DNA of 64,000 nt from an uncultured Aliarcobacter sp. (GCA_963664305.2 CAXXLV010000001.1:288001-352000); one strand, 5' to 3'. Counted from the stretch's first letter, positions 12,584 through 36,839 are shown. The notes: generated from the sequence alone by a model not told the origin. Program-made: numbers and translations.

Positions 12584-12585
12584 AA

Positions 12586-14417: not shown

Positions 14418-14431
14418 TTTATACCTTTTGA

Positions 14432-15253: not shown

Positions 15254-15271
15254 ATTTTCTCCTTAATAATT

Positions 15272-16276: not shown

Positions 16277-16284
16277 AATAAATT

Positions 16285-16476: not shown

Positions 16477-16485
16477 GAGTTTTCC

Positions 16486-18302: not shown

Positions 18303-18303
18303 G

Positions 18304-19188: not shown

Positions 19189-19203
19189 TATTCCTTAAAA
19201 ATT

Positions 19204-19305
19204 GTCCCAATTTTGAAGGGACCTTTTCACTTAACGACTTCTTTTAACACAATGGCAAAGCCATTGTTAAAGAAGCAAACTCTAAAGAGAACAACGAGTT
19301 GTTCT
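19204..19305 (-). other. Three consecutive stem-loops in the dmpE-dmpF intergenic region
   Basis: Plus-strand arms: GTCCC/GGGAC (19204-19222); bulged CTTCTTTTAACACAATGGC/GCCATTGTTAAAGAAG (19238-19275); AGAACAA/TTGTTCT (19288-19305). Confidence 0.6.
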
Positions 19306-19310
19306 TATCT

Positions 19311-20105
19311 TTATACAAATCTACAAGAGGCAGAACCAATTCCACCAATGTTTATAGTCATATTATCACCTGGTTTAATTGTTACCATTGCACATAATGC
19401 ACCAGATAAAATAACCTCTCCAGCTTTTAAACCAACACCAAAAGAACCTAGTGTATTTGCAAGCCATGCTACAGCATTAACAGGACTTCCTAGTGCTGCT
19501 GCACCAGCTCCTGTGTGTAATAATTCTCCATTTCTTTCAAGTGTAATACCACAAGTTGTTAAATCAACATCTCTTGGGTCAACACCTTTTCCACCAAATA
19601 CGATATATCCACAAGAAGCATTATCTGCAACTGTATCTTGAATTTTTATTTTCCAATCTTTAATTCTTGAATCAACGATTTCAAAACATGGCATTACAAA
19701 TTTTGTAGCTCTTAACACATCAGCTGTTGTAACACCTGGTCCCATTAAATCTTCTTTTAAAACGAAAGCTATTTCACCTTCAGCTTTTGGTTGAATCATT
19801 CCTTTTGTTACATTGATTTCATCACCATCAGAATAAATCATATCAGATAATAGGTATCCAAAATCTGGCTGATGAACACCTAACATGTCCATAACAACCT
19901 TTGAAGTTACACCAATTTTTTTACCAATAATTCTTGATTTATCATCTTCCATTCTTCTTTTTAAAAAGTAATGTTGAATAGCATAAGCATCTTCAATTGT
20001 TGCATCAGCTTCTCTTGAAGAAATTGGTTCAATTGTATAATTACCTTTTAAAGCATCATATAGCTCATTTCCATATTTTTCTATTTTTTCATTTGTCATT
20101 GCCAT
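19311..20105 (-). CDS. dmpE: 2-oxopent-4-enoate hydratase
   Basis: GKKIGVTS..V..MLGV.QPDFG, PKAEGEIAF, WKIKIQDTVADNAS. Confidence 0.92.
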   Translation of the reverse strand: MAMTNEKIEKYGNELYDALKGNYTIEPISSREADATIEDAYAIQHYFLKRRMEDDKSRIIGKKIGVTSKVVMDMLGVHQPDFGYLLSDMIYSDGDEINVTKGMIQPKAEGEIAFVLKEDLMGPGVTTADVLRATKFVMPCFEIVDSRIKDWKIKIQDTVADNASCGYIVFGGKGVDPRDVDLTTCGITLERNGELLHTGAGAAALGSPVNAVAWLANTLGSFGVGLKAGEVILSGALCAMVTIKPGDNMTINIGGIGSASCRFV

Positions 20106-20115
20106 AATCAGCCCC

Positions 20116-21573: not shown

Positions 21574-21998
21574 TATTTTAATCCTATCTTTTCAATTGCA
21601 TATTTTGCACATATAATATCTTCTTCTTCAGTTCCACCAGAAACACCAATTGCCCCAACTTTTACGTTTTCATCATCAAAAATTGGTAAACCACCACCAA
21701 AAGGAATTAATCTTTCTCTGTTTGAAAAACCTTGTTCCAAATGAGGCATTTGTTTAAAAATCTCTGTCCATTGTGCAGTTGGAAAACCAAAACTTGCACT
21801 CGTAAAAGCTTTGTTTTTTGCTATATCTATCGAATGGATAAATGAATTTTCCATTCTTAAAAAAGCCATTTCTAAACCTTTATTATCAACTACGCTCACA
21901 TTTATTGATATGTTTAATTCTTCAGCCTTTTTAACTGCAAAAAGACAAGCTTCCATAGAAGCCTGTCTTGATATAGATTTTTCTGTAATTATCTTCAT
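21573..21998 (-). CDS. GlcG/HbpS (DUF336) heme-binding family protein
   Basis: VSVVD..G, IA..KA.T, GGGLPI, VGAIGVSGG...ED. Confidence 0.85.
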   Translation of the reverse strand: MKIITEKSISRQASMEACLFAVKKAEELNISINVSVVDNKGLEMAFLRMENSFIHSIDIAKNKAFTSASFGFPTAQWTEIFKQMPHLEQGFSNRERLIPFGGGLPIFDDENVKVGAIGVSGGTEEEDIICAKYAIEKIGLK

Positions 21999-22000
21999 TC

Positions 22001-22948
22001 TTATTTATATGCCGATAATGTATACGCCGTTGTGAACGCACCATTTTCTTGACCTGTATGATAGAAAATCCCTCTCCATAATTCATCTTCAGTCCAAGTA
22101 ACAGTTGGCATATCTGGTTGCATTAAATATCCAAGTCCAGCAAATGTTTCAAGTCTATGTCCAGATGGGTCAAAGAAATAAATTGTTTCACCTCTTGTAA
22201 TTCCATGTCTTTGTGGAGTAACATCAATTTTTACATTATGCATTGCCATAACATCTGCTGCTCTTAAAATATCATTCCATCCATCTAAGAAAAATGCAAA
22301 GTGATGCATTCCAGTTTCAGGACCAGCAACAAATGCTAAATCATGAGGAGTTGAAGTTCTTGCCAACCAAGTTGCAGCTTGAAGTGAACCTTCTGGTCCT
22401 ACACAAACTTGTTCCGCTAAATTAAATTCTAAAACTTCTTGGAAGAATTTTGTTCCAGCCATAACTTTTTCTGGTCCTTCACACATTAATAAAATATGGT
22501 CTATCCAGTGTGCTTTGATACCTTTTCCATTAAATGGCCAAGGTCTTGGATTTGTATCTCCAACTTCTTTACCTACAAAAGTTTTTTGGGCATATAAATT
22601 AAATTCATGTCCACTTGGAGCAATAAATTTTAAAATTCTTCCACATTCAGCAACACTTCCAGCTGGTAAAATTTCAGTTGAAACACCATATGCTTCAATT
22701 TTTACTTTTAAATCATCTATATCAGAATCTTTTTCAACTTTATAAGCAACTCTGTTAAATGTAGCCTCTTCGCTTGGTCTTAAAACTAAGCTATATTTAT
22801 CCCATTCATCCCAACATTTTAAATATAATGTACCATCCGCATCTTCTCTAGTAACATCCATACCCATAATTTCTACATAATATTTTCTTGATTCGTTGAT
22901 ATCTAATACATTTAAATCAACATGTCCAATTCTCATAACTCCACTCAT
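22001..22948 (-). CDS. dmpB: Catechol 2,3-dioxygenase
   Basis: GVMRIGHV, YLKCWDEWDKYS, DH, HHFAF, RHGITRG.TIYFFDPSG.RLE (extradiol Fe ligands); xylE/dmpB family. Confidence 0.95.
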   Translation of the reverse strand: MSGVMRIGHVDLNVLDINESRKYYVEIMGMDVTREDADGTLYLKCWDEWDKYSLVLRPSEEATFNRVAYKVEKDSDIDDLKVKIEAYGVSTEILPAGSVAECGRILKFIAPSGHEFNLYAQKTFVGKEVGDTNPRPWPFNGKGIKAHWIDHILLMCEGPEKVMAGTKFFQEVLEFNLAEQVCVGPEGSLQAATWLARTSTPHDLAFVAGPETGMHHFAFFLDGWNDILRAADVMAMHNVKIDVTPQRHGITRGETIYFFDPSGHRLETFAGLGYLMQPDMPTVTWTEDELWRGIFYHTGQENGAFTTAYTLSAYK

Positions 22949-22964
22949 TTTCTCTCCTTAGTTT

Positions 22965-23282
22965 TTAAGATCCAAATCTATACATTTGTTTACTTTTGTT
23001 TTTTGCTCTTGATATGAATTCTATTTCCATATCATCTCTTGGAAAAACTTTACAAGCTAACACAATATTGTCATTTTCTTCTTCTTCTGATATATGTTTT
23101 CGGTTCATTTTTTCTTTACTATATTCACCATGATAAACTTTTATTTTACATACACCACAAGCTCCATTATGACAACCACTTGGCACTAAATCTGAATGTA
23201 CATATAAGCCATCCATTAAGTTTTTATTCTCAAGGCATTGTTGACTTCTGTCTTTGTCTTTAACAAATACATTATGTTTCAA
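22965..23282 (-). CDS. dmpQ: XylT/DmpQ-type [2Fe-2S] ferredoxin (C23O reactivation)
   Basis: GCHNGACGVCK...VLAC; directly upstream of the C23O gene; TTG start. Confidence 0.85.
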   Translation of the reverse strand: MKHNVFVKDKDRSQQCLENKNLMDGLYVHSDLVPSGCHNGACGVCKIKVYHGEYSKEKMNRKHISEEEENDNIVLACKVFPRDDMEIEFISRAKNKSKQMYRFGS

Positions 23283-23334: not shown

Positions 23335-23367
23335 ACTTTACTTTAAATAATTCGCATAAAAATCGCA
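23335..23367 (-). promoter_or_regulatory. Tandem box 3 (TGCGATT-TTTA-TGCGAAT) plus -10-like TAAAGT, upstream of the meta-cleavage operon
   Basis: Box at 23350-23367 on the minus strand, 9-bp spacer, hexamer at 23335-23340. Confidence 0.8.
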
Positions 23368-23380: not shown

Positions 23381-24328
23381 TCAAATTTTTTTGTTTTTTT
23401 CTTCAAGAACTTCAATAAGTTCCTTAACAGCGTTAATTGATTCACTAAATTGTGACTGTTGTTCTTTAGTTAAATCCAGTTCAATTATCTTCTCAACACC
23501 ATCTTTGCCTAAAATTACAGGAATTCCTGCAACAACATTTTCATATCCATACTCACCATTTAACATCACAGAACATGGATAAATTTCTTTTTTATCATTT
23601 AATATTGCATCTATCATTACGGCTGTTGAATTAGCAGGTGCAAAGTAAGCAGAACCTGTTTTTAGTAAATTTACTATTTGTGCTCCACCATTTTTTGTTT
23701 GATTGATAATTTCATCTATATCCTCTTTAGATAAAACCTCATCCAAAAATTTATTTGATACTTTTGAGTAAGAAACTAAAGGAACCATTTCATTCCCATG
23801 TCCACCCATCACAGAAGCAGCTATCTCATTTTTTTTAGAATTTAATTTTTCATATATAAAATGGCTCATTCTTGCACTATCTAAAATTCCAGCCATTCCA
23901 AAAATTTTATTTCTTGGCCATTTTGAAACTTCAAGTGCTTTATAAACCATTGCATCTAAAGGATTTGATACAATGATAATTATTGCATTTGGGTTATATT
24001 TAATAACATCACTTATCAATGATTCAATAATCCCTGCATTTATATGTAATAAATCATCTCTACTCATTCCAGGTTTTCTAGCAATTCCAGCAGTAATAAC
24101 AACAACATCACAATCATAAAAATCTTCACTTTTAGATATTGCAAATATTTTTGCTTTATCATTTGTTGCAAAAGTAGCTTGTGAGATATCTAACATCATT
24201 GCAGTAGTTAAATCTTCACGAATATCTTTTAGTAATATTTCTGAACAAATATTTTTTAAAGCTAATGTATAAGCTAAAGTTGCACCAACATTCCCAACAC
24301 CAATTATTCCAACTCTTTTACTCTCCAC
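23381..24328 (-). CDS. mdh: Malate dehydrogenase (LDH-like type)
   Basis: GVGNVG, TAGIARKPGMSRDDL, VSNPLD, GILDSAR, GGHG, GSAYFAP; GTG start. Confidence 0.88.
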   Translation of the reverse strand: MESKRVGIIGVGNVGATLAYTLALKNICSEILLKDIREDLTTAMMLDISQATFATNDKAKIFAISKSEDFYDCDVVVITAGIARKPGMSRDDLLHINAGIIESLISDVIKYNPNAIIIIVSNPLDAMVYKALEVSKWPRNKIFGMAGILDSARMSHFIYEKLNSKKNEIAASVMGGHGNEMVPLVSYSKVSNKFLDEVLSKEDIDEIINQTKNGGAQIVNLLKTGSAYFAPANSTAVMIDAILNDKKEIYPCSVMLNGEYGYENVVAGIPVILGKDGVEKIIELDLTKEQQSQFSESINAVKELIEVLEEKNKKI

Positions 24329-24352: not shown

Positions 24353-24385
24353 ATGTTATATAAATCCAATCGCTTTCTAATCGCT
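24353..24385 (-). promoter_or_regulatory. Tandem box 4 (AGCGATT-AGAA-AGCGATT) plus -10-like TAACAT, upstream of mdh
   Basis: Box at 24368-24385 on the minus strand, 9-bp spacer, hexamer at 24353-24358. Confidence 0.8.
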
Positions 24386-24444: not shown

Positions 24445-25698
24445 ATGGCAAAAAAATTTTCACTTACTTTTATAATAATAGGAATAATTGGAGTAATTTC
24501 TCTGGATAAATTAATAGAGATATTTTCTAAAAACAATGAATTGTCTCAAGAAGGTCCATTTTCAATTGCAATCTTTTTTATGATTACAACAGGAATTATT
24601 TTATACTTCATAATACATCATATGGAAAAAGTAATTGAAAAAATAGATAAATCATATAATGAATTAAAAAGAAAAGATAAAAGTAGAATTGCACCTTATG
24701 AATTTTCCCTTGATAATTCTGTTGATTCTATTCACTGGTTAAATTTAGATGGAAAATTTTTATATGTAAATGAATCAACATGTAGAATGGAAGGTTATAC
24801 TAAAGAAGAATTTAAAGATATGTATTTGGAAGATATTGACCCATCATTTGATAGAGAAGGTGCTAAAAAATGTATGCAAGATATAAAAAATACTGAAAAT
24901 TGGAGATTAGAATCTACTCATAAAAGAAAAGATGGAAGTATATATCCTGTAGAAGTATCTGGACATGCATTTATTTTTGAAGGACAAGAATATATTTGTG
25001 CTTTTGCAAGAGATATCACTCAAAGATTAGAAGATAAAAACAATATAACAAAAATAAATCAAGAACTACAAAAATCTTTAGCAGAAAAAGAGATGTTATT
25101 AAAAGAGATTCATCATAGAGTAAAAAATAATATGGAAATCATTTCTTCTTTATTAAATATGCAAGCAAGAAGAAGTGATGATATAAATTTCAAAAATGCA
25201 ATGAAACAAAGTAGAAGTAGAATTCTTACAATGGCTCTTGTTCATGAATTTTTATATTTAGGTGAAAATTTAGCCTACATAAATATTCAAGAATATATAA
25301 AAAAATTAGTTCAAGATATAAAAGAATTGTACATTTCTCAAAATACAAATTTAGAAGTTGATTTACATATTGATAATTTAATATTTTCAGCAAATAGATG
25401 TATTCAAGTAGGAATGATTTTACACGAATTATGCGTAAATTCTTTAAAATATGCTTTTGAAGAAAATAGAAAAAATCTTTTATGTATTCATATAAATAAA
25501 ATCAATGATGATATTAATATAAAAATTAGAGACAATGGAGATAAAGAAATTGATATAACTAATTTACAAAAAAGGGACTCTATTGGATTACAATTAATTT
25601 ATTCAATAGTTGATTTTCAATTGCATGGAAAATTAGAATTTAAAATAAATAGAGGATTGGAATGTAATATCACATTCCCAGAAAAGGAAGAGATATGA
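24445..25698 (+). CDS. Sensor histidine kinase 1 (2 TM, PAS, HisKA_2, HATPase)
   Basis: PAS (G.FLYVN...GY..EE...HKRKDGS.YPVEV), H-box EIHHRVKNN, N-box HELCVNSLKYAF, atypical DNGDK. Confidence 0.88.
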   Translation: MAKKFSLTFIIIGIIGVISLDKLIEIFSKNNELSQEGPFSIAIFFMITTGIILYFIIHHMEKVIEKIDKSYNELKRKDKSRIAPYEFSLDNSVDSIHWLNLDGKFLYVNESTCRMEGYTKEEFKDMYLEDIDPSFDREGAKKCMQDIKNTENWRLESTHKRKDGSIYPVEVSGHAFIFEGQEYICAFARDITQRLEDKNNITKINQELQKSLAEKEMLLKEIHHRVKNNMEIISSLLNMQARRSDDINFKNAMKQSRSRILTMALVHEFLYLGENLAYINIQEYIKKLVQDIKELYISQNTNLEVDLHIDNLIFSANRCIQVGMILHELCVNSLKYAFEENRKNLLCIHINKINDDINIKIRDNGDKEIDITNLQKRDSIGLQLIYSIVDFQLHGKLEFKINRGLECNITFPEKEEI

Positions 25699-26453
25699 TA
25701 AAAACAAAAATACTTATTGTAGAAGATGAACCAATAATTGCTTTAAATTTACAAGAAACTCTAGAAGAATTAGGTTATGAAACTTTTGGTATTACTAATA
25801 ATAGATGTAGAACTTTAGAATTACTAAAAAGTGAAGAAATACCTGATTTAATATTAATGGATATTTATTTACAAGGCCCTACAACTGGAATACAATTAGC
25901 TAAAGAATTAAAAAATTCATTACCAAATGTTCCTATAATCTTTTTAACAGCAAATTCTGAATATGCAACAATCAAAGAAGCTTCAGAAACTTTTGCTTAT
26001 GGATATTTAGTAAAACCTTATAAAAAAAATACTCTGTTTGCGACTATTGAATTAGCATTAAAAAAAGCAAAAGAAGAACTTACTCAGAAATTAGATTTTG
26101 AGTCATTAAAAAATATAAACAAAACTTTAGAGCATAAATTAACACTGAATCAAGAATCAAAGTCAAGAACAATTAAACTCAAATATGGTTATTTATTTGA
26201 TAAAGAAAAAGAAATTTTGTATTATGGAGATGAAGTAGTAAAACTAACAAATAAAGAAACAGATATCATCAAAGCTTTATGTAAAACTCCTGGTCAAAAG
26301 ATTTCTCAAGAACAATTAGAATATGCAATTTGGCAAAATGAACCAGCTGGTTATGCTGCTTTTAGGTCTGTATTATTCAGACTTAGAAATAAAATACATA
26401 AAGATTTAATAACTAATCAAAATAACACAGGATATAGAATAGAACTTTTATAA
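25695..26453 (+). CDS. Response regulator 1 (REC plus OmpR/PhoB-type winged helix)
   Basis: ILIVEDE, LMD, FLTA, KP; C-terminal LT.KE...IW...FRSVLFRLR.K...GY. Confidence 0.88.
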   Translation: MIKTKILIVEDEPIIALNLQETLEELGYETFGITNNRCRTLELLKSEEIPDLILMDIYLQGPTTGIQLAKELKNSLPNVPIIFLTANSEYATIKEASETFAYGYLVKPYKKNTLFATIELALKKAKEELTQKLDFESLKNINKTLEHKLTLNQESKSRTIKLKYGYLFDKEKEILYYGDEVVKLTNKETDIIKALCKTPGQKISQEQLEYAIWQNEPAGYAAFRSVLFRLRNKIHKDLITNQNNTGYRIELL

Positions 26454-26460
26454 TTCTATT

Positions 26461-27267
26461 TTATATCAATGAATAAATCATTTTTATACTAAGAGCTAAA
26501 GGTATTAAAGAGAATAATTTTTTCATCAAATCTACATTTATTTTATGAACTAACATAACTCCAACTGGAGCAGTTAAATAACTTGCAAAGGCAACACAAA
26601 TAAGTGCAGGGATTGAAACAAAACCTAAAGTATAAGTCTCCATTGAAGTATGACTCCAACCGTTTATTATATATCCTATAGTTCCAGAAATTGCAATTGG
26701 TAAACCAATAGCTGAAGATGTAGCAATTGCTTTTTTGATATCAATATTTTGAATTAATAAATATGGAACACTCATTATTCCTCCACCAATAGAAACAAGT
26801 GAAGATAAAGCTCCAATTGCACTACCTGATAAAATATGTGTTTTTGCTGTGAAAATTTTATTTTCTGGTTTTGGTTTTTTACCAATAAACATCATAACGG
26901 CTGAATAAAACATAAAACAAGCAAAGATTATAGATAAATAAAATGAGTCTAATTTTGAAGCTATAAATGTGGCTAAAAAAGTTCCTATAATAATACCTGG
27001 AACCATCATTTTAACAACATCCCAAACTATTGCTTTTTTCTTTTGTTGAGCTTTGATACTTGAAATTGAAGTAATAATTATAATAGCCATTGAAGTTCCT
27101 AAAGCTAAGTGAACAACGCTATTTTCAGCTATTGTATTATTTGCTAAAAACATAGCTGTTAAAACAGGAACAATAATTCCTCCACCACCTATTCCAAAAA
27201 GTCCAGAAACTACTCCAACAAATGAACCTAAGGCTAAAAAATAAATAATTGTTTGAATATCTAACAT
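26461..27267 (-). CDS. TauE/SafE (TSUP) family exporter
   Basis: GLFGIGGG.I.VP, ALGTSMA, SIGGG...VP, AIATS; duplicated halves. Confidence 0.85.
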   Translation of the reverse strand: MLDIQTIIYFLALGSFVGVVSGLFGIGGGGIIVPVLTAMFLANNTIAENSVVHLALGTSMAIIIITSISSIKAQQKKKAIVWDVVKMMVPGIIIGTFLATFIASKLDSFYLSIIFACFMFYSAVMMFIGKKPKPENKIFTAKTHILSGSAIGALSSLVSIGGGIMSVPYLLIQNIDIKKAIATSSAIGLPIAISGTIGYIINGWSHTSMETYTLGFVSIPALICVAFASYLTAPVGVMLVHKINVDLMKKLFSLIPLALSIKMIYSLI

Positions 27268-27283
27268 GATAATCCTTTAAAAT

Positions 27284-27316
27284 AAAAAAAGATACAACTT
27301 TATAGTTGTATCTTTT
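27284..27316 (-). terminator. Intrinsic terminator at the end of dmpP
   Basis: Stem AAAAGATACAACT / AGTTGTATCTTTT (27287-27316) with a 4-nt loop; U-run on the minus strand. Confidence 0.7.
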
Positions 27317-28373
27317 AGATAGATTTAAAAAGTGGACTTTTTATTTTATCGCTGTGCAGGTCAGCTTTTGAGAAGAATTTTTCAGTATGTATATCTTTTT
27401 CAAATAATCTTCCTTGCATAAGTGCAGTAATACAAGCTTCACTCATCATTGGAGGTCCGCATAAATATGCTTTATTTCCTGCAAATTGATTATTATAAAG
27501 TTTTTTAGCTACATCATTTGTAAATCCAATTTCACCAGCCCATGATGGATTTTCATTATTTGATAAAACTGGAACATACCTAAAATTATCATATTTCTTT
27601 TCTAAATCTCTGAACATATCAGCATAATAAAGTTCTTCTTCATTTCTTGCACCATGAAACAAAGTAATTGGTTGAGTACAACCATTTTCTAACTCATCTA
27701 AAATCATAGATTTTGGACTTGAAAGTCCCGAACCACCTGCAAAAAATATCATTGGTTTTTGTGCTGATTTTTTTACAAAAAATCTTCCAAAAGGACCAGT
27801 GATTTTTCTTCTATCTCCAACTTTTACATTTTGATGAATCCAAGGTGTTGCTTCACCATCAGGAATAAGTCCAATATTTAATTCAATTACTTTTCCAGTA
27901 CTTGGTTGATTCGCTAGTGAAAATGCTCTTGGTTCATCAAATCCTGGAACATGATAATTTATATATTGACCAGCTTGAAAATCTAACTCTTCATCAAGTT
28001 CAATCCAAAGTCCTAAGATTCTTGGAGTTAACATCTCTCTTTTGATAACTGTTCCCCAAACATCTTTAACTTTTATACTTCTAGCATCAACATCCACATC
28101 AATATCAGCTTCAATAACAACATCATTAATTGCTGTTGCTGTACAAGCCAAACAAAAACCATCTTCTCTTTCACTCTCCATCAAAGCAAAATATGAAGCA
28201 TCACCTAAATCAACCTCTCCTTCTAAAACCTCAACTTTACAAGTTCCGCAAAGTCCGTGATTACAAGCATGAGGAAGATAAACCCCTTGTCGTAGAGCTG
28301 CATCAAGAAGGGTTTGCCCTTCTTGAACTTCTACTATATCACCTGTTGGTTCTATTTCTAATTTACAAGCCAA
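27315..28373 (-). CDS. dmpP: Phenol hydroxylase reductase (2Fe-2S / FAD / NADH)
   Basis: ACNHGLCGTCK, FQAGQY, RAFSLAN, GPFG, AGGSGL, YLCGPP, SPLFK end; TTG start. Confidence 0.93.
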   Translation of the reverse strand: MACKLEIEPTGDIVEVQEGQTLLDAALRQGVYLPHACNHGLCGTCKVEVLEGEVDLGDASYFALMESEREDGFCLACTATAINDVVIEADIDVDVDARSIKVKDVWGTVIKREMLTPRILGLWIELDEELDFQAGQYINYHVPGFDEPRAFSLANQPSTGKVIELNIGLIPDGEATPWIHQNVKVGDRRKITGPFGRFFVKKSAQKPMIFFAGGSGLSSPKSMILDELENGCTQPITLFHGARNEEELYYADMFRDLEKKYDNFRYVPVLSNNENPSWAGEIGFTNDVAKKLYNNQFAGNKAYLCGPPMMSEACITALMQGRLFEKDIHTEKFFSKADLHSDKIKSPLFKSI

Positions 28374-28374
28374 T

Positions 28375-28734
28375 TTATGCTCCTACTTTACCTATCAAAT
28401 CTGGTGTTTTAAAAGTGATAAATGATTTATGTCCAACACCATTTTCTTTTAAACTTTTTGAAAAATCAGGTGTTATAACTTTTCCATCAACTTCCCAAAT
28501 AACTTCTGTTTTATCAAAATCTAAATCTTTAAAATCTAGTTCAATTTTATATGTTACTGGAATTAAATCAGAAATTATCGCACCAAAAGGCATTTCAGGA
28601 GGTAATGGAAATGCTCTTGGAGAGCTAACTACTCTATGTCCATACCAATATAGATACACTAATTGATTTCCATGAAATTTATCTACACTATCTTTCATTA
28701 TGATTGGATATTCTCCAATTGATTGAATTGCCAT
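28375..28734 (-). CDS. dmpO: Phenol hydroxylase gamma subunit (P4)
   Basis: D..DKFHG.QLVY..W, PP.MPFGA, SL.ENGVGHK...F.TP.L.G; operon position. Confidence 0.9.
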   Translation of the reverse strand: MAIQSIGEYPIIMKDSVDKFHGNQLVYLYWYGHRVVSSPRAFPLPPEMPFGAIISDLIPVTYKIELDFKDLDFDKTEVIWEVDGKVITPDFSKSLKENGVGHKSFITFKTPDLIGKVGA

Positions 28735-28745
28735 TTTTTCTCCTT

Positions 28746-30260
28746 TTATTTATTTCTTAATTTGTTCCACATAGCTTCATCAGGAGAACCTATATAATCC
28801 ATATTATCTACACCATGTTCTATTTTGTACCATTTTAAAACTTCTGGAATAGTAGCTCCACCACAGTTTCCTTGGAATATTTGATGTGGAGGTAACCAAG
28901 CTTGAACATATTTTTCAGGCTGTGCATCAAATATATCTTTACATCCATCAGAACAAGTATGGAAAATTTCTCCATTATATTCAGATGTTTTATGTGTATA
29001 AACATGTGGATTTCCACCTTCGATATCTGTAAATCCTAATGGAATTTGACAAGTTTGACAAATCAAAGGTAAAGTTTCAGAATAATATCTTTCCCCTTTT
29101 TCTTGTAAAGCTATATATCTTTCAAACATTGGTCTATAATATTTATCAAAAGTATCTGGATATTTTTGACTTAACCAATTCATTTTTTCTTCGTCTGGCA
29201 TCCAAATATGAATATTTGCAGCATTTGTATGATTATAGAAAATATTCCATACTTGATGAGATAAATGCCCTTTTTCAGCAATAATTGTATTTACTAATTT
29301 TTCAGGAATTTTAATTCCATATTTTTCTAAATCTTTATATAAGGCCATACAGTTTTGTTCGATATATAATTCAACTGCTTCTGCCCAAGATGTTGGAGAG
29401 TTAGGTAGCATATAATCCATCATCATAGCTACAAGACCTAACATTCTGTAACCTCTCCATAACCATTTATCCATCCATTTTTGAACAATTGGAACATTAT
29501 CTGCATCTTGTTCTAACATGAATTTAATAGCTGATAATCCTAAAGTCATATGTCTTGATTCATCACTTTGTGCAGAAAAACCAAATGTAACTGTTGCCAT
29601 ATCTCCATTATAAGCAGCTCCACTCATAAATGGAACAAATAATAAACTTGTTAATACAAATTCAAAAGAGAATGAAATAGCTGTTAAATATTCAAAAGGT
29701 CCTGCTGTACTTGCATCATCTCCAAATGATTTTGGAACTGATAAATACCAAACTCTATCATGCATTGTTCTAAAATTATGAAAACCATTAAAATATTTAT
29801 TATAATGACTCATTGTATGTACTTGAGTTTGGAAATGTCTTAACTCATCAATAGCTTGCATTTGGCATGCAATTGAAGCACCCTCACCTTTAAAAGCACG
29901 TGCTGCGTGAGAAAAACCTTGAACAACTTTATATTCAAGTGGTGTTACACCTGTTAAAAATAGTTTTAGTGCATTTACATATCTTGCATCTGAAATATTT
30001 TTTTGTGCATTGTTTTGAGCAAAAGCATCAATAATTGAATAAAGTTTTTTATCTTTTTCAGCTTGTAATTTCCAATAAGAATCCATTGTCATTCTAAATG
30101 GATCTTCCCATGCTTCCCAATCATGAATTTTCAATCCTTCCATTTTTAAAAAAGGAAAAACATCTTCTTCTTTTTGGTAAGTTGGATCCCAACCAAGTCT
30201 AGTCATATATTTATATGCATCTTTTTTATTTAATCTTTTTTTTCTAGGTTCTACACTCAT
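28746..30260 (-). CDS. dmpN: Phenol hydroxylase large (alpha) subunit, diiron centre
   Basis: WEDPFR, IDELRH and SDESRH diiron motifs, DRVWYLSVPKS, YHS-like C-terminus, IFQGNC. Confidence 0.96.
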   Translation of the reverse strand: MSVEPRKKRLNKKDAYKYMTRLGWDPTYQKEEDVFPFLKMEGLKIHDWEAWEDPFRMTMDSYWKLQAEKDKKLYSIIDAFAQNNAQKNISDARYVNALKLFLTGVTPLEYKVVQGFSHAARAFKGEGASIACQMQAIDELRHFQTQVHTMSHYNKYFNGFHNFRTMHDRVWYLSVPKSFGDDASTAGPFEYLTAISFSFEFVLTSLLFVPFMSGAAYNGDMATVTFGFSAQSDESRHMTLGLSAIKFMLEQDADNVPIVQKWMDKWLWRGYRMLGLVAMMMDYMLPNSPTSWAEAVELYIEQNCMALYKDLEKYGIKIPEKLVNTIIAEKGHLSHQVWNIFYNHTNAANIHIWMPDEEKMNWLSQKYPDTFDKYYRPMFERYIALQEKGERYYSETLPLICQTCQIPLGFTDIEGGNPHVYTHKTSEYNGEIFHTCSDGCKDIFDAQPEKYVQAWLPPHQIFQGNCGGATIPEVLKWYKIEHGVDNMDYIGSPDEAMWNKLRNK

Positions 30261-30281
30261 AATATCTCCCTTATTTTTGTA

Positions 30282-30557
30282 TTAGTTATTCCAATAAACG
30301 ATGAATTCATCATCTGTTTCTTCTACTTGTCCACCTAAAGAAATAAGTACTAATTGTAATTCTTCAGGATCCCAATCTCTTCCTAAAGCTTCTGATACTG
30401 TAGAAGCTTTTACAGTAATTTTTTCTGGTCTCTCAATTTGAATCATTGCTGGTTTATTAGTAATTATTACACCTTCATTATCTTCTTTGATTGCTTCTGC
30501 TATTGTTCTTCCATCTTCTGTAGATTGAAGACATAATAATGCTATACTTGATGACAT
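30282..30557 (-). CDS. dmpM: Phenol hydroxylase activator (MmoB/DmpM family)
   Basis: LQ..E..R.I.EAI..DN, PAMI, LGRDWD...L...LISL.G.V.E.DD. Confidence 0.92.
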   Translation of the reverse strand: MSSSIALLCLQSTEDGRTIAEAIKEDNEGVIITNKPAMIQIERPEKITVKASTVSEALGRDWDPEELQLVLISLGGQVEETDDEFIVYWNN

Positions 30558-30581
30558 ACGTTTCCCTTTTATTATTAATTT

Positions 30582-31574
30582 TTATAAATTTATTTCACAG
30601 TTTTTTAATCTAACTATTAACTCTGTTTTAACATTAGATATAAGTTCTTTAGGATTGTTTGAAAATGAAGCTAAAGGTTCCATCGCATTTTCCATAATCT
30701 CTATGTCTTCTTTTACCCAACTAGTTAATAAATCTCTATTTTCAGTTGATTCTTTTGCCATAACTTTTATAACACTATCTAACCATTTAACTGTTTCTTC
30801 ATACCATGAAACGATAAATTCATTTAACATAGAAATAGTCATTTCATCATTTTGCGCTAACTCTTTTGAGAATTCATTAATCATTAAAGGAATTACAAAA
30901 CCATCAAAAACAACATTTTGTTTAACAAATAATCTAATTGGATCTTTTTCAACAAAAGAATCTTCAACTGCTTTTCTTAAACCTTGCCAATTAGGACAAT
31001 TTAACCAAGCATCTTTTCCAGCTTCTAATTTTGAAACATCATTATCAGAAAGAAGTAGAATTATTTTTGTTATGTGTTGAGCCATTCCAAGTCTATCTTC
31101 AGCTTGAAATAAACAAGCACTCATCATAGCCGTCCCATAAACTCTATCTACAATACAAAGATTATTCATATTTGCACCATACTCATAATGTCTTAATGGA
31201 GTTAAAAAATCATATACCTTTTGTAAATTATCTTTTTTTATAAAATTAACTAAACCTCTTTTTTCAACAAATTCAAAACTTTGTTCATTTGCAGCATTTT
31301 GAGAAGCTCTTGTTGATACATAAGACATATAATGAAATTTTCTTGGATCCAATAAGTCATACCAATCATTCATTTTGATTTTTGTTCTATTTTTATCATA
31401 TATTTCAAATTCAGGTTCCCATTGTGGCCTATAATGAAAATTCTCAGTTGGTTGTGCATCATACATAGCTTCTTCATATCTTGAAGCTGGTCTATCTTCA
31501 CCTAATCTTTGTGCAACATGACCAAAAGTATGTCTTATTGGTTCTATTTCAACACTAGCTATATTTAATTCCAT
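30582..31574 (-). CDS. dmpL: Phenol hydroxylase beta subunit (P1)
   Basis: P.RHTF.HVA.R.G, ASRYEEA, NFHYRP.W, DW..L.DPR, PLRH.E.GANMN, W...P.WQGLR. Confidence 0.93.
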   Translation of the reverse strand: MELNIASVEIEPIRHTFGHVAQRLGEDRPASRYEEAMYDAQPTENFHYRPQWEPEFEIYDKNRTKIKMNDWYDLLDPRKFHYMSYVSTRASQNAANEQSFEFVEKRGLVNFIKKDNLQKVYDFLTPLRHYEYGANMNNLCIVDRVYGTAMMSACLFQAEDRLGMAQHITKIILLLSDNDVSKLEAGKDAWLNCPNWQGLRKAVEDSFVEKDPIRLFVKQNVVFDGFVIPLMINEFSKELAQNDEMTISMLNEFIVSWYEETVKWLDSVIKVMAKESTENRDLLTSWVKEDIEIMENAMEPLASFSNNPKELISNVKTELIVRLKNCEINL

Positions 31575-31588
31575 ATTTTCTCCTTAGT

Positions 31589-31822
31589 TTAATTTAACCC
31601 ATATTTCCAATTTTCATTGTCAATTAATAATTCATCTTCTTGTTCTTTTGTAAAAAACGATACTCTATTATTTTGACAAAATTCAATGAAAGCTTTGTAT
31701 GGTAAAAGTAATTCAACATTCATTACAGCTTCACCTACTGCAAAATTAAATTCAACAAATCCATTATCTTTTATATTTATGATTTGTACAAATTTTTTTT
31801 CATTTGGCATAAGTTCATACAT
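31589..31822 (-). CDS. dmpK: Phenol hydroxylase assembly subunit (P0)
   Basis: GFVEF.FAVG....VEL.LP..AF.EFC..N.V motif; first gene of the operon. Confidence 0.88.
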   Translation of the reverse strand: MYELMPNEKKFVQIINIKDNGFVEFNFAVGEAVMNVELLLPYKAFIEFCQNNRVSFFTKEQEDELLIDNENWKYGLN

Positions 31823-31868
31823 AAAAAACTCCTAATTAAATTACTCTTTTAGTTTCAAGAACAAGTGA

Positions 31869-31901
31869 ATACTATGTAAATTAAATCGCAAATTATTCGC
31901 A
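31869..31901 (-). promoter_or_regulatory. Tandem box 5 (TGCGAAT-AATT-TGCGATT) plus -10-like TAGTAT, upstream of the phenol hydroxylase operon
   Basis: Box at 31884-31901 on the minus strand, 9-bp spacer, hexamer at 31869-31874. Confidence 0.8.
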
Positions 31902-31957
31902 AAAAAAAACAAAAAAAATAAAATTGGATAAAATACATACAAATAAAAGGATAGAAT

Positions 31958-33259
31958 ATGAGTTCAATGAAAAGGCGCATTTTTGATAATAAAAATATTC
32001 CTACAAAATTTTCAATTTTCTACTTGATTGTTGGAATTATTGGAATAATTTGTATTGATAGATTTTTAAATATTTATTTCACTTATAATAAACCAACTGA
32101 AGGAACATCTTCTACATTCAATTTTTTATTTCTTTTTTTACTATTTAGTGTAATTGTTCTTTTTTTGATTTTAAATCATATGCAAAAAGTTATTTTAAGA
32201 ATTGATAAATCATATAAAGACTTAAAAGAGAAAGATAAAGAAAGATTAATGCCCTATGAATTTGCATTAAATAATTCTGTTGATGGTATTTACTGGTTTA
32301 CTATCGATGCAAAAATTGTTTACTTAAATGATGCAGCTTGCAAAATGTTAGGTTATGAAAAAGAAGAGTTATTAGGAAAATATCTTGAAGTGATGGATAC
32401 AAATTTCAATCGACAAACTGCTGTTGATATTATGCATAAAATAAAAAATACAGATAATTGGATATTAGAAACAACTCAAAGAAAAAAGAATGGTGAAACT
32501 TTTCCTGTTGAAGTTTCAGGTCATGGTTTTACTTATGGTGGGCAAGAATATATTTGTGCATTTGGAAGAGATATTAGTCAAAGACAAGAGATAAACAAAA
32601 AAATCACAAATATAAATTTAGAACTTCAAAAATCTTTAGATGAAAAAGAGATTTTATTAAAAGAGATTCACCATAGAGTTAAGAATAATATGGAAATTAT
32701 CTCATCTTTATTAGCAATGCAATTAAGACGAGCAAAAGATGATGAAGTAAAATATATATTAAAACAAAGCAAAAGTAGAATCAACACTATGGCATTGGTT
32801 CATGAATTCTTGTATTTAGGAGAAAACTTAGCTTATATAAATCTTCAAGATTATATAAAAAGATTAGTTCAAGATATAAAAGAGTTATACATTTCTCAAA
32901 ATACAAACTTAGAAGTTGATTTACATATTGACAAACTAATTTTTTCAACAAATAGATGTATTCAAATTGGAATGGTGATACATGAACTTTGTGTAAATGC
33001 TTTAAAATATGCTTTTAAAGAAGATAGAGAAAATTTACTTTGCATACACATAAAAAAATCTGAAGATAAAATCCATGTAAAAATCAGAGATAATGGAGAA
33101 GGATTAAAAGACATAAATTCTCTGTATAAAAGTGAATCTATTGGTATGCAATTAATTCACTCTATTGTAGAAGATCAATTAGATGCAAACATTGAATTTA
33201 GAAATAACAATGGATTAGAGTGTAATATTATATTTTCAAAAGATGAGGATGAAGAATGA
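31958..33259 (+). CDS. Sensor histidine kinase 2 (2 TM, PAS, HisKA_2, HATPase), paralogue of kinase 1
   Basis: Same architecture as kinase 1; EIHHRVKNN, HELCVNALKYAF, canonical DNGEG. Confidence 0.9.
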   Translation: MSSMKRRIFDNKNIPTKFSIFYLIVGIIGIICIDRFLNIYFTYNKPTEGTSSTFNFLFLFLLFSVIVLFLILNHMQKVILRIDKSYKDLKEKDKERLMPYEFALNNSVDGIYWFTIDAKIVYLNDAACKMLGYEKEELLGKYLEVMDTNFNRQTAVDIMHKIKNTDNWILETTQRKKNGETFPVEVSGHGFTYGGQEYICAFGRDISQRQEINKKITNINLELQKSLDEKEILLKEIHHRVKNNMEIISSLLAMQLRRAKDDEVKYILKQSKSRINTMALVHEFLYLGENLAYINLQDYIKRLVQDIKELYISQNTNLEVDLHIDKLIFSTNRCIQIGMVIHELCVNALKYAFKEDRENLLCIHIKKSEDKIHVKIRDNGEGLKDINSLYKSESIGMQLIHSIVEDQLDANIEFRNNNGLECNIIFSKDEDEE

Positions 33260-34014
33260 ATAAAATTAAAATATTAATAGTTGAAGATGAATCTATTATT
33301 GCATTAAACCTTAAAGAGACTATTCTTGATTTAGGATACGAACCTTGTGGAGTAGCACCTAATAAATGTAAAACTATGAAAATTCTTGAAAAAGGAATTA
33401 TTCCTGATTTGATTTTAATGGATATTTATCTAAAAGGACCTACAACAGGAATTGAACTTGCGAAAGAATTAAAAACTTTATTTCCATATATTCCTGTTGT
33501 TTTTTTAACGGCAAATTCAGAAGTTAGTACAATAAAAAAAGCATCTGAAACTTTTGCATATGGTTATATTCTAAAACCATACAAAAAATCCAATTTACAT
33601 GCTGCTATTGAAATAGCTTTGAAAAAATCTGCAGAAGATAATATTAAAATGAAAAAACTTGAAGCTACTGAAAATGTTAATAAAACTTTAATTCATCAAC
33701 TTGAATTAAATAATGAGCAAAGATCTCGTACTATACAATTAAAATATGGATATTTATTTGATAAAGAAAAAGAAATTTTATATTATGGTGATGAACCAGT
33801 AAAATTGACTACAAAAGAGACTAAAATCATAAAATATCTTTGTGAAAGCCCTGGTCACAATGTATCTCAAGAACAACTTGAATATGCAATTTGGCAAGAT
33901 GAACCAGCAGGTTATGCAGCTTTTAGATCTGTATTATTCAGACTTAGAAGTAAAATCCATAAAGATCTAATTTCTAACCAAAATAATACTGGTTATAAAA
34001 TAGAACTTTTATAA
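33256..34014 (+). CDS. Response regulator 2 (REC plus winged helix), paralogue of regulator 1
   Basis: 252 aa like RR1; shares the EPAGYAAFRSVLFRLR recognition-helix region. Confidence 0.9.
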   Translation: MNKIKILIVEDESIIALNLKETILDLGYEPCGVAPNKCKTMKILEKGIIPDLILMDIYLKGPTTGIELAKELKTLFPYIPVVFLTANSEVSTIKKASETFAYGYILKPYKKSNLHAAIEIALKKSAEDNIKMKKLEATENVNKTLIHQLELNNEQRSRTIQLKYGYLFDKEKEILYYGDEPVKLTTKETKIIKYLCESPGHNVSQEQLEYAIWQDEPAGYAAFRSVLFRLRSKIHKDLISNQNNTGYKIELL

Positions 34015-34026: not shown

Positions 34027-35910
34027 TTACCTATCCATATTTATAATCTCATTTTTCCCTAAAAAACTTTTATTATTAGCTTCACTAAATATATTTTTTG
34101 CAATTTTATCAGTTTGAACTGCAATATCATGTGTTTGGTCCATAATTTGACTATTCTGTTTTGTTTTTGAATCTAATTCATCAATTATATTATTTACCTC
34201 CAAAATACCCTTTTCTTGTTTCATACTTAAATTTGTAATTGTCTCTATCATCGTAGATGATTTATTAATATTTTCTAAAAGCTCGGAATAGCCTTTAATC
34301 ATATTACTTGATATATTTTTCCCTTCATTTGCTTTTATAGTTGCATTTTCAACTAATTGTTTTATCTCTTTAGCTGCATCTGCACTTCGACTTGCAAGAT
34401 TTCTAACTTCTCCTGCTACAACAGCAAATCCTTTTCCACTTTCACCAGCTGTTGCAGCTTCAACTGCAGCGTTAAGTGATAATATATTAGTTTGAAATGA
34501 AATTTGGTCAATAATCATTATTGCTTCATTTATTAAATTTACTTGACTTGTTATTTCATCCATTGAATTTGATGTATTTAATGCTAGACTTTGTCCTTCT
34601 TTTGCTGAAACATTTAACTCATTTGCATATTTACTTAATTCTGAAATATTTTCATTACTTTCCACAATCACAGATGTGATATCTTTTAAAGAAACATTTG
34701 TTTCATCCAATAACAAAGTTGTATCTTTTGCCGATTCATTTAATTTATTTATACAGTCTATTAATTTATTTGAAGCACTATCTAATGTAATTCCTCTAAG
34801 TAAAGATTGTTTCAATAATTCTGAAATCTCTTCTGTTAAAAAATTAATATTTTCTATAAACTCAGCTATTTCGCCTTTTTGGTTATTAATTTCAACTTTA
34901 TTTATAAACTTATAACTACTAAACTCTTTTAGAACAAAAGATATTGATTCAATATTTAATCTCAATTCATTTATCATCGAATTAAAAGCATTACATAAAC
35001 TCTTTAATTGACTATTATTTGGGATTTTTTCAACCTTAACATTTAAATAACCTCTATTTATTTTTGAAACAACATCTAAAACATTTTCAACTGTTTCATT
35101 ATCTTTTTGTATACCATTTCTTATTTTGATTATATTTTCATTTATAATTTTTGACATTTTGCCAAATTCATTTCTATTACTCTCTTTCAATAATTCTATA
35201 TTGTCCGATTCCTTTGATAAATATTTAAAAAAAGACAATAATCCATTTTGAAAAGTTTTTATAGAGTGTTTAATATCTTTATACACTAGATATGATATTG
35301 ATACTGCAAAAATCAAACTAATTATAAAAATTATAAATATAATTTTTAGTATATAATTTTTTACATTTTGAGAATTTTCATAAAAAATTTTTCCATTTTT
35401 CTCTGATAATTTTGTTAATTCATCCATTTGTTTATATAAAATTGAATCATGTGGAAGAGCTTTTTCTTTTATTATTTTTCCAGCAAGAGCCATATTTCCA
35501 GATAACATAGCATCTACAACTTCTGTTCTTATTGGAATCCAAGTTATAAATTGTTTTTTTGCTTCAATAATTTTACTTTTATCTTCTAATAAAGAATTTT
35601 CTAATACATTAAAAAGTTCTAACAATTCCTTATCCATTTTACTTATTTTATCAATTGCTAATTGTTTTTCTTCATTTGAAGGAGTTAAAGCTATATCTTT
35701 TACTGCACTAATTTCTAATGCAATTTTAAAACTTATAGCTTTAGTTATATTACTAACTTGATAGGGATAATTATAAAACTTTGAAATTATCATCGATAAA
35801 TCTTGAATTTTAAATATCGAATAACAACTAATAAAAATCAACATACTTATAAGGATTATAAATCCTGAAATAATTTTAGAATTAATACTTAAATCATTTA
35901 TTTTGTTCAT
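34027..35910 (-). CDS. Methyl-accepting chemotaxis protein
   Basis: Two TM helices around a helical periplasmic domain (4HB-like), HAMP-like region, [30 protein letters not shown] hairpin. Confidence 0.92.
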
Positions 35911-35936: not shown

Positions 35937-35969
35937 ATATTATTTAATTCTAATCGCTTTATATTCGCA
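35937..35969 (-). promoter_or_regulatory. Tandem box 6 (TGCGAAT-ATAA-AGCGATT) plus -10-like TAATAT, upstream of the MCP
   Basis: Box at 35952-35969 on the minus strand, 9-bp spacer, hexamer at 35937-35942. Confidence 0.8.
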
Positions 35970-35986: not shown

Positions 35987-36019
35987 AGCGATTAGAATGC
36001 GATTTTTTTTATATATATT
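35987..36019 (+). promoter_or_regulatory. Tandem box 7 (AGCGATT-AGAA-TGCGATT) plus -10-like TATATT, upstream of SDR-leuB
   Basis: Box at 35987-36004, 9-bp spacer, hexamer at 36014-36019. Confidence 0.8.
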
Positions 36020-36044: not shown

Positions 36045-36839
36045 ATGGACTTAAAAATATCAGGCAAGATAGCTTTAATTACAGGTTCTACTCAAGGAAT
36101 TGGTTTTGAAACAGCAAGAAAATTAGCACAAGAAGGTGTTAATGTTATTATAAACGGAAGAAATGAAAAAAAAGTTAATAATGCTGTACAAAAAATAAAA
36201 GCTGAATTTCCTAAAATTAAAGTTGTTGGAATTACTGCTGATTTAAAAGATAATGAAGGTTGTAATAAATTAATTTCTAAAATCCCACACATTGATATTT
36301 TGATAAATAATTTGGGAATATTTGAACCAAAAGAGTTTAAAGATATAACTGAACAAGAATGGTTACATATGTTTAATGTAAATGTTATGAGTGGTGTAAG
36401 ACTTGCTCAACACTATTTATCATCTATGATAGACCAAAATTGGGGAAGAATTATATTTATTTCTAGTGAATCAGCTATTCAAATTCCAAAAGAAATGATT
36501 CATTATGGGATGACAAAAACAGCTCAAATATCTGTTTCAAGAGGAATCGCTGAATTAACTCAAGGAACAAATGTAACTTCAAATGCAATATTATTAGGAC
36601 CTTCAAAATCTGAAGGTGTTGTAGAATTTATTGAAAATTTTGCAAAACAAAACAATATAAAATTTGAAGAAGTCGAAAAAGATTTTTTCAAAAGTGTAAG
36701 ACCAACTTCTCTTATTCAAAGATTTGCAGAGGTTGAAGAAGATGCAAATATGATTGTATATATTTCTAGTGCACTTTCTAGTGCAACAAATGGAGCAATT
36801 CTAAGAGCTGATGGTGGAGTAATTCAATCAGCATTTTAA
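36045..36839 (+). CDS. Short-chain dehydrogenase/reductase
   Basis: TGSTQGIG, NNLG, YGMTK (YxxxK). Start moved to ATG 36045 (AAGGA RBS); the ORF-track start lies inside box 7. Confidence 0.88.
   Translation: MDLKISGKIALITGSTQGIGFETARKLAQEGVNVIINGRNEKKVNNAVQKIKAEFPKIKVVGITADLKDNEGCNKLISKIPHIDILINNLGIFEPKEFKDITEQEWLHMFNVNVMSGVRLAQHYLSSMIDQNWGRIIFISSESAIQIPKEMIHYGMTKTAQISVSRGIAELTQGTNVTSNAILLGPSKSEGVVEFIENFAKQNNIKFEEVEKDFFKSVRPTSLIQRFAEVEEDANMIVYISSALSSATNGAILRADGGVIQSAF

Follow-up and report, generated by a model that had tools for sequence, protein, structure and literature searches.

A phenol hydroxylase island in an uncultured Aliarcobacter with predicted two-component control at GCGA-repeat, sigma-70-type promoters

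Organization of the phenol hydroxylase island

We analyzed a 64,000-nucleotide stretch of DNA (the window, C1:288001-352000 of the genome denoted G000) from an uncultured Aliarcobacter sp. (GCA_963664305.2), a genome of 2.78 Mb with 26.9% GC. The window holds a phenol hydroxylase operon, dmpKLMNOP, with two paralogous pairs of regulatory genes on either side of it, each pair encoding a transmembrane (TM)-PAS-HisKA_2 histidine kinase (HK) and a response regulator (RR) that joins a receiver (REC) to a winged helix-turn-helix (wHTH). Regulation of multicomponent phenol hydroxylases is the textbook case of control by sigma-54 and an enhancer-binding protein. For the present island we propose, with a probability of about 0.75, a two-component regulon that responds to phenolics and uses a pho-box-like operator at sigma-70 promoters, instead of a sigma-54 activator of the DmpR type.

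The map of the island is based on open reading frame (ORF) calling and Pfam and is given in Table 1, in which, as elsewhere in the text, positions are window coordinates. By its gene content, dmpKLMNOP is a multicomponent phenol hydroxylase operon: all six subunits are predicted in operon order (PF06099, PF02332 twice, PF02406, PF04663 and Fer2/FAD/NAD domains), and DmpN matches the phenol hydroxylase PHN of Pseudomonas sp. OX1 (PDB 2INN) with an E-value of 1e-225. The orthologues of the window proteins carry the source names Aliarcobacter, Halarcobacter and Poseidonibacter. For the short-chain dehydrogenase (SDR) gene, the true start is likely 36045, as orthologues align over 264 of 280 residues. 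The higher GC content of the catabolic genes seemed suggestive of recent transfer, an idea that was discarded because GC content at third codon positions is alike (0.07-0.16) in island, two-component and housekeeping genes, so that composition is uninformative on the origin of the island.

Table 1. Features of the island and of its repeat boxes (window coordinates; boxes are the GCGA-N7-GCGA repeats described in the text, named after the downstream gene)
Feature	Position	Strand	Assignment and remarks
Porin-like ORF	8944-10137	+	NCBIfam Opr-family porin, E 6.5e-13, full length, under the curated cut-off; no Pfam match
ORF	10154-11200	+	No Pfam match; predicted regulon member, as is the porin-like ORF
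meta-cleavage operon, whole	11298-23282	-	Pfam
meta operon, first part			Ferredoxin (fer), catechol 2,3-dioxygenase (C23O), HbpS-like, dmpC, hydratase/decarboxylase, dmpF, dmpG
meta operon, rest			Second hydratase/decarboxylase, LLM oxidoreductase, hydrolase, ApbA-like, permease, two unknown ORFs
mdh-like gene (malate/lactate-dehydrogenase family)	23381-24328	-	Pfam; NCBIfam malate dehydrogenase subfamily
HK1	24445-25698	+	Pfam PAS and HisKA_2
RR1	25695-26453	+	Pfam Response_reg and Trans_reg_C
TauE-family membrane protein gene	26461-27267	-	Pfam; listed with the dmp operon
dmpP, O, N, M, L	27315-31574	-	Pfam
dmpK	31589-31822	-	PF06099
HK2	31958-33259	+	Pfam PAS, HisKA_2 and HATPase
RR2	33256-34014	+	Pfam Response_reg and Trans_reg_C
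Chemoreceptor (methyl-accepting chemotaxis protein)	34027-35910	-	Pfam; 4HB_MCP_1 sensor
SDR gene	36045-36839	+	Pfam; leuB also on the plus strand
Box, porin-like ORF	8850-8864	+	GCGATAAATTTGCGA, 11 nt, TAATCT; 79 nt ahead of the ORF
Box, fer/C23O operon	23352-23366	-	GCGATTTTTATGCGA-N11-TAAAGT, read along transcription
Box, mdh-like gene	24370-24384	-	GCGATTAGAAAGCGA-N11-TAACAT
Box, dmpK	31886-31900	-	GCGAATAATTTGCGA-N11-TAGTAT; 63 nt ahead of the ATG
Box, chemoreceptor	35954-35968	-	43 nt ahead of the ATG
Box, SDR	35988-36002	+	Divergent from the chemoreceptor box

The kinases and the regulators

The preliminary description of this DNA had placed a PAS-HisKA_2 kinase and a REC-wHTH regulator divergently from dmpK, and both genes (HK2 and RR2) are recovered by ORF calling and Pfam. 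The kinase has 433 aa with one PAS domain and one kinase core, the HisKA_2 domain (PF07568) scoring 91.2 bits, and its H-box, HHRVKNN, is invariant in all 40 aligned kinases. It belongs to the HisKA_2/HWE-type class. In the AlphaFold2 model of HK2 (predicted local distance difference test score, pLDDT, 83.6), two helices (14-43 and 51-105) are separated by a loop of ~7 residues, and the second helix runs into the PAS domain, which is followed by the DHp and CA domains. The two N-terminal TM helices agree with the membrane anchoring claimed earlier; the periplasmic loop, given there as ~15 aa, is indeed very short. The folds nearest to the model in Foldseek are YF1 and the HisKA_2 kinase EL346 (4R3A), with Brucella LOV-HK also found. 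Among the dmp-linked orthologues, identity amounts to 63-64% in the PAS domain and to 40-52% in the TM region, which is the least conserved part. Eight PAS residues (F102, L104, D109, Y122, N124, G132, E171 and F202) are invariant in both alignments.

RR2 is a regulator of the OmpR/PhoB class, as defined by a REC domain (PF00072, 72.6 bits) and a winged-helix Trans_reg_C domain (PF00486, 41.2 bits against a cut-off of 26.2); none of the NCBIfam equivalogs reaches its cut-off for this protein. The model (pLDDT 84.6) shows the REC domain, an alpha5 that continues as one helix over residues 111-158, and the wHTH with its recognition helix at 220-233. Its top Foldseek matches are PrrA, MtrA, KdpE bound to DNA, RpaA, PhoP, CosR and PmrA, and EutV fits the portion made of REC and the helix. 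The best PDB sequence matches cover the REC domain only, and several of them are not of the OmpR class (the receiver of a diguanylate cyclase, 3cg0; EutV, 6wsh; an antiterminator, 1s8n). To our knowledge, signalling from a HisKA_2 kinase to a DNA-binding regulator of the OmpR class is uncommon among characterized HisKA_2 systems.

RR1 and RR2 have the recognition-helix region EPAGYAAFRSVLFRLR in common and both should, therefore, read the same boxes. In a maximum-likelihood tree, the island kinases (27 rows, support 100/99) include the mdh-adjacent HK1 as a clade of its own (7 rows, 100/98), with the homologues linked to p-cresol-type (pch) genes, described below, branching outside. We regard HK1/RR1 as a duplicate within the island, which probably supplies the shared operators with a second signal.

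A tandem GCGA repeat at six island promoters

The repeat was first seen as aaTCGCAAAttatTCGCAAAa in the spacer between dmpK and HK2, with a similar repeat in the spacer between the mdh-like gene and HK1. Written as TCGC-N7-TCGC, it occurs six times in the window where 0.04 occurrences are expected, and none of 100 shuffled sequences reached six. The same six are the only ones in the whole genome, all of them within a 27-kb stretch of the island (C1:296850-324002), with control spacings giving 0-2 matches genome-wide, except for N11 with seven. All six boxes are intergenic, have the same orientation relative to the downstream gene and lie 41-79 nt ahead of its start codon. The common form is GCGA-N7-GCGA, then 11 nt, then a TAnnnT -10 element, so that the box would span approximately -38 to -24. 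When 58 boxes from 23 sequences (the window and 22 further loci) were considered, TAnnnT was found exactly 11 nt after the box in 55, while the other spacings gave 0-11. The full architecture with up to one mismatch is found at nine sites in the genome, of which the six exact ones are all in the island. One of the near-matches, ACGA-N7-GCGA-N11-TAnnnT at 7770-7801 (+), stands 34 nt ahead of a PDT/ACT-domain gene (7835-8845), which may be a seventh regulon member or a chance case; the two other one-mismatch sites are elsewhere in the genome.

The boxes are conserved. The dmpK box is kept in 19 of 19 dmpK-HK2 intergenic regions, the flanks of which diverge, the fer box in all 15 loci (window included) in which fer and its upstream region were part of the fetched stretch, and the mdh box in 6 of 6 loci where mdh adjoins HK1. 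The SDR box refers to the four loci (4/4) in which an exact box was found ahead of SDR. The chemoreceptor gene, which sits between RR2 and SDR, has a box of its own, likewise in G010 (locus L024); this hints that chemotaxis toward phenolics is co-regulated with catabolism, the protein being a candidate phenolic chemoreceptor. In G065, a box is present upstream of dmpK with no kinase/regulator pair adjacent. Counts of TCGC-N7-TCGC per genome, taken over 184 family genomes, were set aside as noisy, since many relatives have several copies of the 15-mer TCGCTACGGCTTCGC in their genomes. What could be used of these counts was the clustering of sites near the island in carriers, as in G010, with six of seven sites within 25 kb, and G048, with six of seven within 28 kb.

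We consider GCGA-N7-GCGA a candidate tandem-repeat site for a regulator of the OmpR/PhoB class. Its position and periodicity are those of PhoB pho boxes. The mode of action can be read in two ways. A regulator sitting on the -35 region could act as a repressor in the absence of substrate, to be released by phosphorylation or dephosphorylation. Indeed, the box overlaps the core promoter, and the promoters might fire unaided, given that sigma-70 promoters of Campylobacterota need little -35 information. Nonetheless, we regard repression as quite improbable. The orientation of the box is fixed and the 11 nt to the -10 element are invariant in 55 of the 58 boxes, which suggests a fixed contact with RNA polymerase and not occlusion, and OmpR/PhoB regulators at such a position are classically activators. 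The -10 hexamers are also weak (TAGTAT, TAAGAT and TAAAGT), as expected for activator-dependent promoters. From the invariant box orientation and spacing we thus infer that activation through polymerase contact is favored over simple repression. HK2 has its own conserved TGnTAnAAT element on the other strand, ~27 nt beyond the box, so that autoregulation is possible.

Besides these promoters, similar boxes were seen at other monooxygenase genes. In G005 (L023, 2609-6145), the same box stands ahead of a second diiron monooxygenase cluster, 26% identical to DmpN, and in G064 (L041, G064:C113, 6204-9660), a TCGT/TCGC variant stands ahead of such a cluster, with an HK1-like pair adjacent. Control by this regulator family may extend to more than one monooxygenase.

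Linkage of the kinase to dmpN across genomes

The family sample consisted of 184 Arcobacteraceae genomes (22 genera) and the phylum sample of 377 further Campylobacterota genomes outside this family. dmpN is present in 36 of the 184 genomes, representing 9 of the 22 genera, and was found in none of the 377 sampled genomes outside the family. The survey of co-occurrence that had been suggested earlier gave a strict association: the kinase is found in 36/36 dmpN-positive and in 0/148 dmpN-negative Arcobacteraceae genomes. Only these 36 genomes have orthologues with at least 57% identity, which in G127 are fragmentary and lie at the ends of contigs, and the best kinase match in any dmpN-negative genome of the family has 37% identity. 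In 34 of the 36, kinase and dmpN are on opposite strands at a distance of 1661-1750 bp, as calculated from the search coordinates, and RR2-HK2 is divergent from dmpKLMNOP in 18 of 20 mapped loci, with both exceptions in one genus.

Several observations accompany this survey. In G048 (L027, G048:C9, and G048:C7:111704-112165), dmpN, HK2 and rpoN contain one in-frame stop each (TAA, TAA and TAG, respectively), which could reflect island decay or sequence errors. In G064, the contig that carries the pair has it next to the above diiron monooxygenase (26% identity to DmpN) and meta-cleavage genes. In the dmpN-negative G011 (L133, G011:C1:2364000-2383999, ~8251-8949), the box of the porin gene is fused to an ORF that corresponds to the last 195 residues of RR2 with 93% identity; this scar is followed by the chemoreceptor, two divergent boxes, SDR and leuB, with ~23 kb lost from the porin gene to the middle of RR2. 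The boxes of G011, which had looked like a counter-example, were rejected as such, as they lie on both sides of this deletion scar with its C-terminal remnant of RR2.

A wider survey by contig search with the kinase alignment kept 80 loci, all generic PAS-HisKA_2 kinases of 25-42% identity from many phyla and none an orthologue; as the search patterns were generic HisKA_2 words, this survey is uninformative on the distribution outside Campylobacterota. Contigs from RNA libraries (runs X3, X8, X15 and X16; wastewater and compost) are 90-99% identical to dmpN-dmpK (window 28700-31940). Relatives of the island are thus present in wastewater and compost and perhaps expressed there, it being noted that contigs prove neither transcription nor a start site.

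Sigma-54 components

The preliminary description held that the island contains no AAA+ activator and that no -24/-12 element lies upstream of dmpK, and both statements agree with our searches. Of nine PF00158 matches in the genome, none falls in the window; GG-N10-GC is absent from both strands of 31823-31957 and, more widely, from either strand of five intergenic promoter regions of the island. A genome free of sigma-54, which that description implied, was not found. rpoN is present in G000, together with one true bacterial enhancer-binding protein (bEBP), the sole strong PF00158 match, which is a GAF-AAA-HTH_8 protein of 509 aa encoded ~410 kb from the island. The two genes (C1:732232-733758 and C1:749514-749972) lie ~17 kb apart. 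The bEBP is not DmpR-like, and the genome-wide check proposed earlier revealed no DmpR-like gene: the V4R domain has no match in G000 (the search control being positive in three genomes), and neither has XylR_N, this latter negative being weak because its control matched in no genome.

The orthologue of the bEBP is present in 15 of 44 same-genus genomes, which are exactly the rpoN-positive ones, and is missing from five of the nine dmpN-positive genomes of the genus, so it does not track dmp. In these five carriers (98-100% complete), no Sigma54_DBD match (0/5 for rpoN) and no PF00158 match above ~30 bits were found. rpoN and the GAF-type bEBP thus look like an accessory sigma-54 module separate from the phenol island. 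In the family as a whole, rpoN is found in 67 of the 184 genomes and in 13 of the 36 that carry dmpN. As it is absent from the other 23, sigma-54 control of the island is impossible in those 23.

These data also bear on the notion that the pairs are unrelated neighbors and that the repeat is bound by another protein, be it the distal GAF-type sigma-54 activator, a LysR-type regulator encoded at 6755-7582 or some further factor. The presence of rpoN and a bEBP in G000, a LysR gene 1.3 kb from the first box, and a dmp operon that lies apart from the pair in G065 speak for it. We find it very hard to accept, given that rpoN is lacking in 23 of the dmpN-positive genomes and the bEBP in 5/9 of the same-genus ones, that none of the five promoter regions has GG-N10-GC, and that no LysR ORF stands beside dmp or pch genes in the other mapped loci. 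Moreover, where the box recurs at pch loci in two other families, the RR homologues are the only DNA-binding proteins that accompany it.

Distant homologues beside p-cresol-type genes

Outside the island, homologues of the pair are found next to genes for p-cresol-type metabolism (the known gene order being pchACXF). In G254, which belongs to another family, a pair whose kinase is 47% identical lies between a pchA-like aldehyde dehydrogenase gene and a trio encoding a cytochrome c, an unknown protein and a flavoprotein (pchC-X-F); the flavoprotein, PchF, matches p-cresol methylhydroxylase 1DII with an E-value of 1e-216, genes of the protocatechuate 4,5-cleavage type adjoin, and GCGA-N7-GCGA-N11-TAnnnT precedes both operons. 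In a third family (G426), the genes facing the pair are homologues of pchC (54% identical) and pchF (68%), with the same box. In G151 and G084, pairs of 37-39% identity face an operon for a PchF-like (33-34%) flavocytochrome. The repeat there is still 11-bp-spaced but reads GAGA-N7-GAGA in G151 and GAGC-N7-GAGA in G084, and the recognition helix is altered in both. The half-site changes are TGAGAGTTTTT, found twice in L050 (10580-10625), and TGAGCGTTTTT followed by TGAGATTTTTC in L051 (10935-10975), ahead of the PchF-like flavocytochrome operon; co-variation of regulator and operator is possible in these homologues. In these gene neighborhoods, the pair and the repeat thus travel together, always beside enzymes for phenolic substrates.

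These loci bear on the nature of the signal. The two-component system might control the island through the GCGA boxes with the kinase reporting oxygen, redox state or membrane/solvent stress, and with substrate specificity coming from elsewhere. Haem, FAD and FMN are common ligands of PAS domains, LOV and FixL-type PAS kinases come closest in structure, and the tiny periplasmic loop makes sensing within the membrane conceivable. As all of the target enzymes require O2, such a signal would gate oxygenase expression in a microaerophile. We consider this unlikely, even if it is the strongest competitor of a phenolic signal. The same kinase family is tied to two entry enzymes of different chemistry, phenol hydroxylase and p-cresol methylhydroxylase, that have nothing but a phenolic substrate in common, and in the loci mapped the island has no further conserved regulator with substrate specificity. 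The alignments showed no conspicuous invariant His or Cys pattern of the sort typical of haem and LOV PAS domains, and it is the TM region, not the PAS domain, that is conserved least.

Proposed mechanism and its confidence

In the two-component regulon that we propose, the membrane kinase, with its two TM helices, one cytoplasmic PAS domain and HisKA_2 core, would sense a phenolic compound, the PAS domain being the most likely site, and would phosphorylate the OmpR/PhoB-class regulator (REC, long helical linker and winged helix). The regulator would then bind the 11-bp-spaced GCGA-N7-GCGA repeat head-to-tail at about -38 to -24, in place of a -35 box, and recruit, in the manner of PhoB at its pho boxes, the housekeeping RNA polymerase to the weak -10 element TAnnnT. 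The predicted targets in the window are dmpKLMNOP-tauE, the fer/C23O meta operon, the mdh-like gene, the porin-like gene, the chemoreceptor gene and SDR.

This proposal has some weak points that should be considered when referring to it. All of its support is in silico, and binding, start site and induction are predicted only. A box that overlaps the -35 region could equally serve a repressor. As G000 has rpoN and a bEBP, a sigma-54 input is formally conceivable in this genome. The PAS model and the Foldseek search give generic matches to PAS/LOV kinases with no hint of a ligand; the PAS domain is, accordingly, a candidate phenol sensor, with oxygen, redox state and membrane stress as rival signals. 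Linkage is not universal, as dmpKLMNOP of G065 stands alone with its pair on another contig, and dmpN of G064 is on a separate short contig, away from the pair. As the N11 control gave seven matches, TCGC pairs cannot be called extremely rare at all spacings, and 8 kb (C1:80001-88000) were left out of the genome-wide scans. Finally, the loci are related by descent, so that 19/19 and 55/58 overstate independence; the conserved boxes represent roughly 6-8 promoter types from nine genera and two other families.

Rewiring of the pathway to sigma-70 two-component control had been claimed in the preliminary description. Control of the two-component, sigma-70 type is supported in silico, while the direction of change, as implied by the term rewiring, goes beyond this support. 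Descent from a DmpR-controlled ancestor is plausible, because the hydroxylase is, among the sampled genomes of the phylum, limited to a single family, because rpoN is patchy in Arcobacteraceae and because the pch-linked homologues lie outside the island kinases in the tree.

A more far-reaching reading is one that we put forward tentatively, leaning somewhat against it. The kinases may constitute an undescribed family of dedicated phenolic sensors, in which the single cytoplasmic PAS domain of a small membrane HisKA_2 kinase, unrelated to the V4R pocket of DmpR, MopR, PoxR and PcrS, would bind phenol or cresols directly, and in which a hybrid regulator, with its winged helix fused to a REC plus coiled coil of the PdtaR/EutV kind, would activate sigma-70 promoters from the GCGA repeat. 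Such a family would have been recruited at least twice in Campylobacterota, for phenol hydroxylase and for p-cresol methylhydroxylase. In Aliarcobacter, its regulon would couple uptake, chemotaxis and catabolism, with two sensors on one operator. If true, lineages often without rpoN could run pathways that are sigma-54-dependent elsewhere.

Arcobacteraceae abound in wastewater and at oil-impacted sites, often with no rpoN in their genomes, and a sigma-54-independent system would explain how the pathway operates in them. Phenol biosensors rely nearly exclusively on V4R sensors of the DmpR/MopR type; the system described here could offer an orthogonal, sigma-70-compatible phenolic sensor and promoter chassis, with possible use in biosensors. 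It also yields a clean in silico regulon (an operator, six promoters, a chemoreceptor and a porin) of good experimental tractability, and an example of a HisKA_2 kinase paired, by predicted signalling, with a DNA-binding regulator of the OmpR class.

Comparison with known systems

In the literature that we covered, from which most subscription journals were missing, no description was found of phenol hydroxylase regulation in Arcobacter or of this regulatory system. An Arcobacter strain has been shown to degrade catechol by the meta pathway, with regulation not addressed in the accessible part of that paper (PMC3656443).

The island resembles systems of the XylR/DmpR subclass (DmpR, MopR and MphR) in that a regulator gene is divergent from dmpK, in the six-subunit hydroxylase and meta pathway, and probably also in that a phenolic inducer turns on catabolism. 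It differs in that no AAA+/V4R protein and no -24/-12 element are found in the island, in having two components, and in a direct repeat placed at -35, whereas DmpR uses a distant inverted-repeat upstream activating sequence.

Two-component control with a cytoplasmic PAS sensor over an aromatic oxygenase pathway is shared with TodS/TodT, TmoS/TmoT and StyS/StyR, of which TmoST controls a related diiron monooxygenase. TodS, TmoS and StyS are large, soluble double-sensor hybrid kinases of ~980 aa, with two PAS domains, two kinase cores and an internal REC, and act on regulators of the NarL/FixJ type. Unlike these, the island kinase is a membrane protein of 433 aa with one PAS domain and a HisKA_2 core, and its regulator is of the OmpR type, with Trans_reg_C and no LuxR-type HTH; the departure from the TodST and StySR architectures that had been noted earlier thus holds.

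PcrSR of Aromatoleum aromaticum EbN1 is described, in the portion of the report at hand, as a V4R-based two-component system, dependent on sigma-54, for p-cresol (PMC10715001). It is similar to the present system as a two-component system dedicated to phenolics among genes of the p-cresol methylhydroxylase type, and differs in the V4R domain of PcrS, with its His/Trp anchors, and in the sigma-54-dependent PcrR, neither of which has a counterpart here.

With PdtaS/PdtaR, EutW/EutV and HWE/HisKA_2 kinases such as LovK and EL346, the island kinases share the HisKA_2 core and the H-box HHRVKNN; orthologues are labelled 'PdtaS' by their sources, and the REC and long helix of the regulator resemble those of EutV and PdtaR. 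In contrast to PdtaSR and EutVW, the output domain is a winged helix for DNA binding in place of an RNA-binding ANTAR domain, the kinase is anchored in the membrane, and the link is to catabolic promoters.

In general, the kinds of control proposed here are already known, namely the regulation of aromatic catabolism by two-component systems and class II activation of the OmpR/PhoB type. As in PhoR/PhoB, a REC domain is combined with a winged helix, and two direct repeats with an 11-bp periodicity replace the -35 box at a fixed short distance from the -10 element. Unlike PhoR/PhoB, the island has a HisKA_2 kinase (not HisKA), a linker helix of ~35 residues that is continuous with alpha5 of the REC domain, a GCGA half-site, and another signal and regulon.

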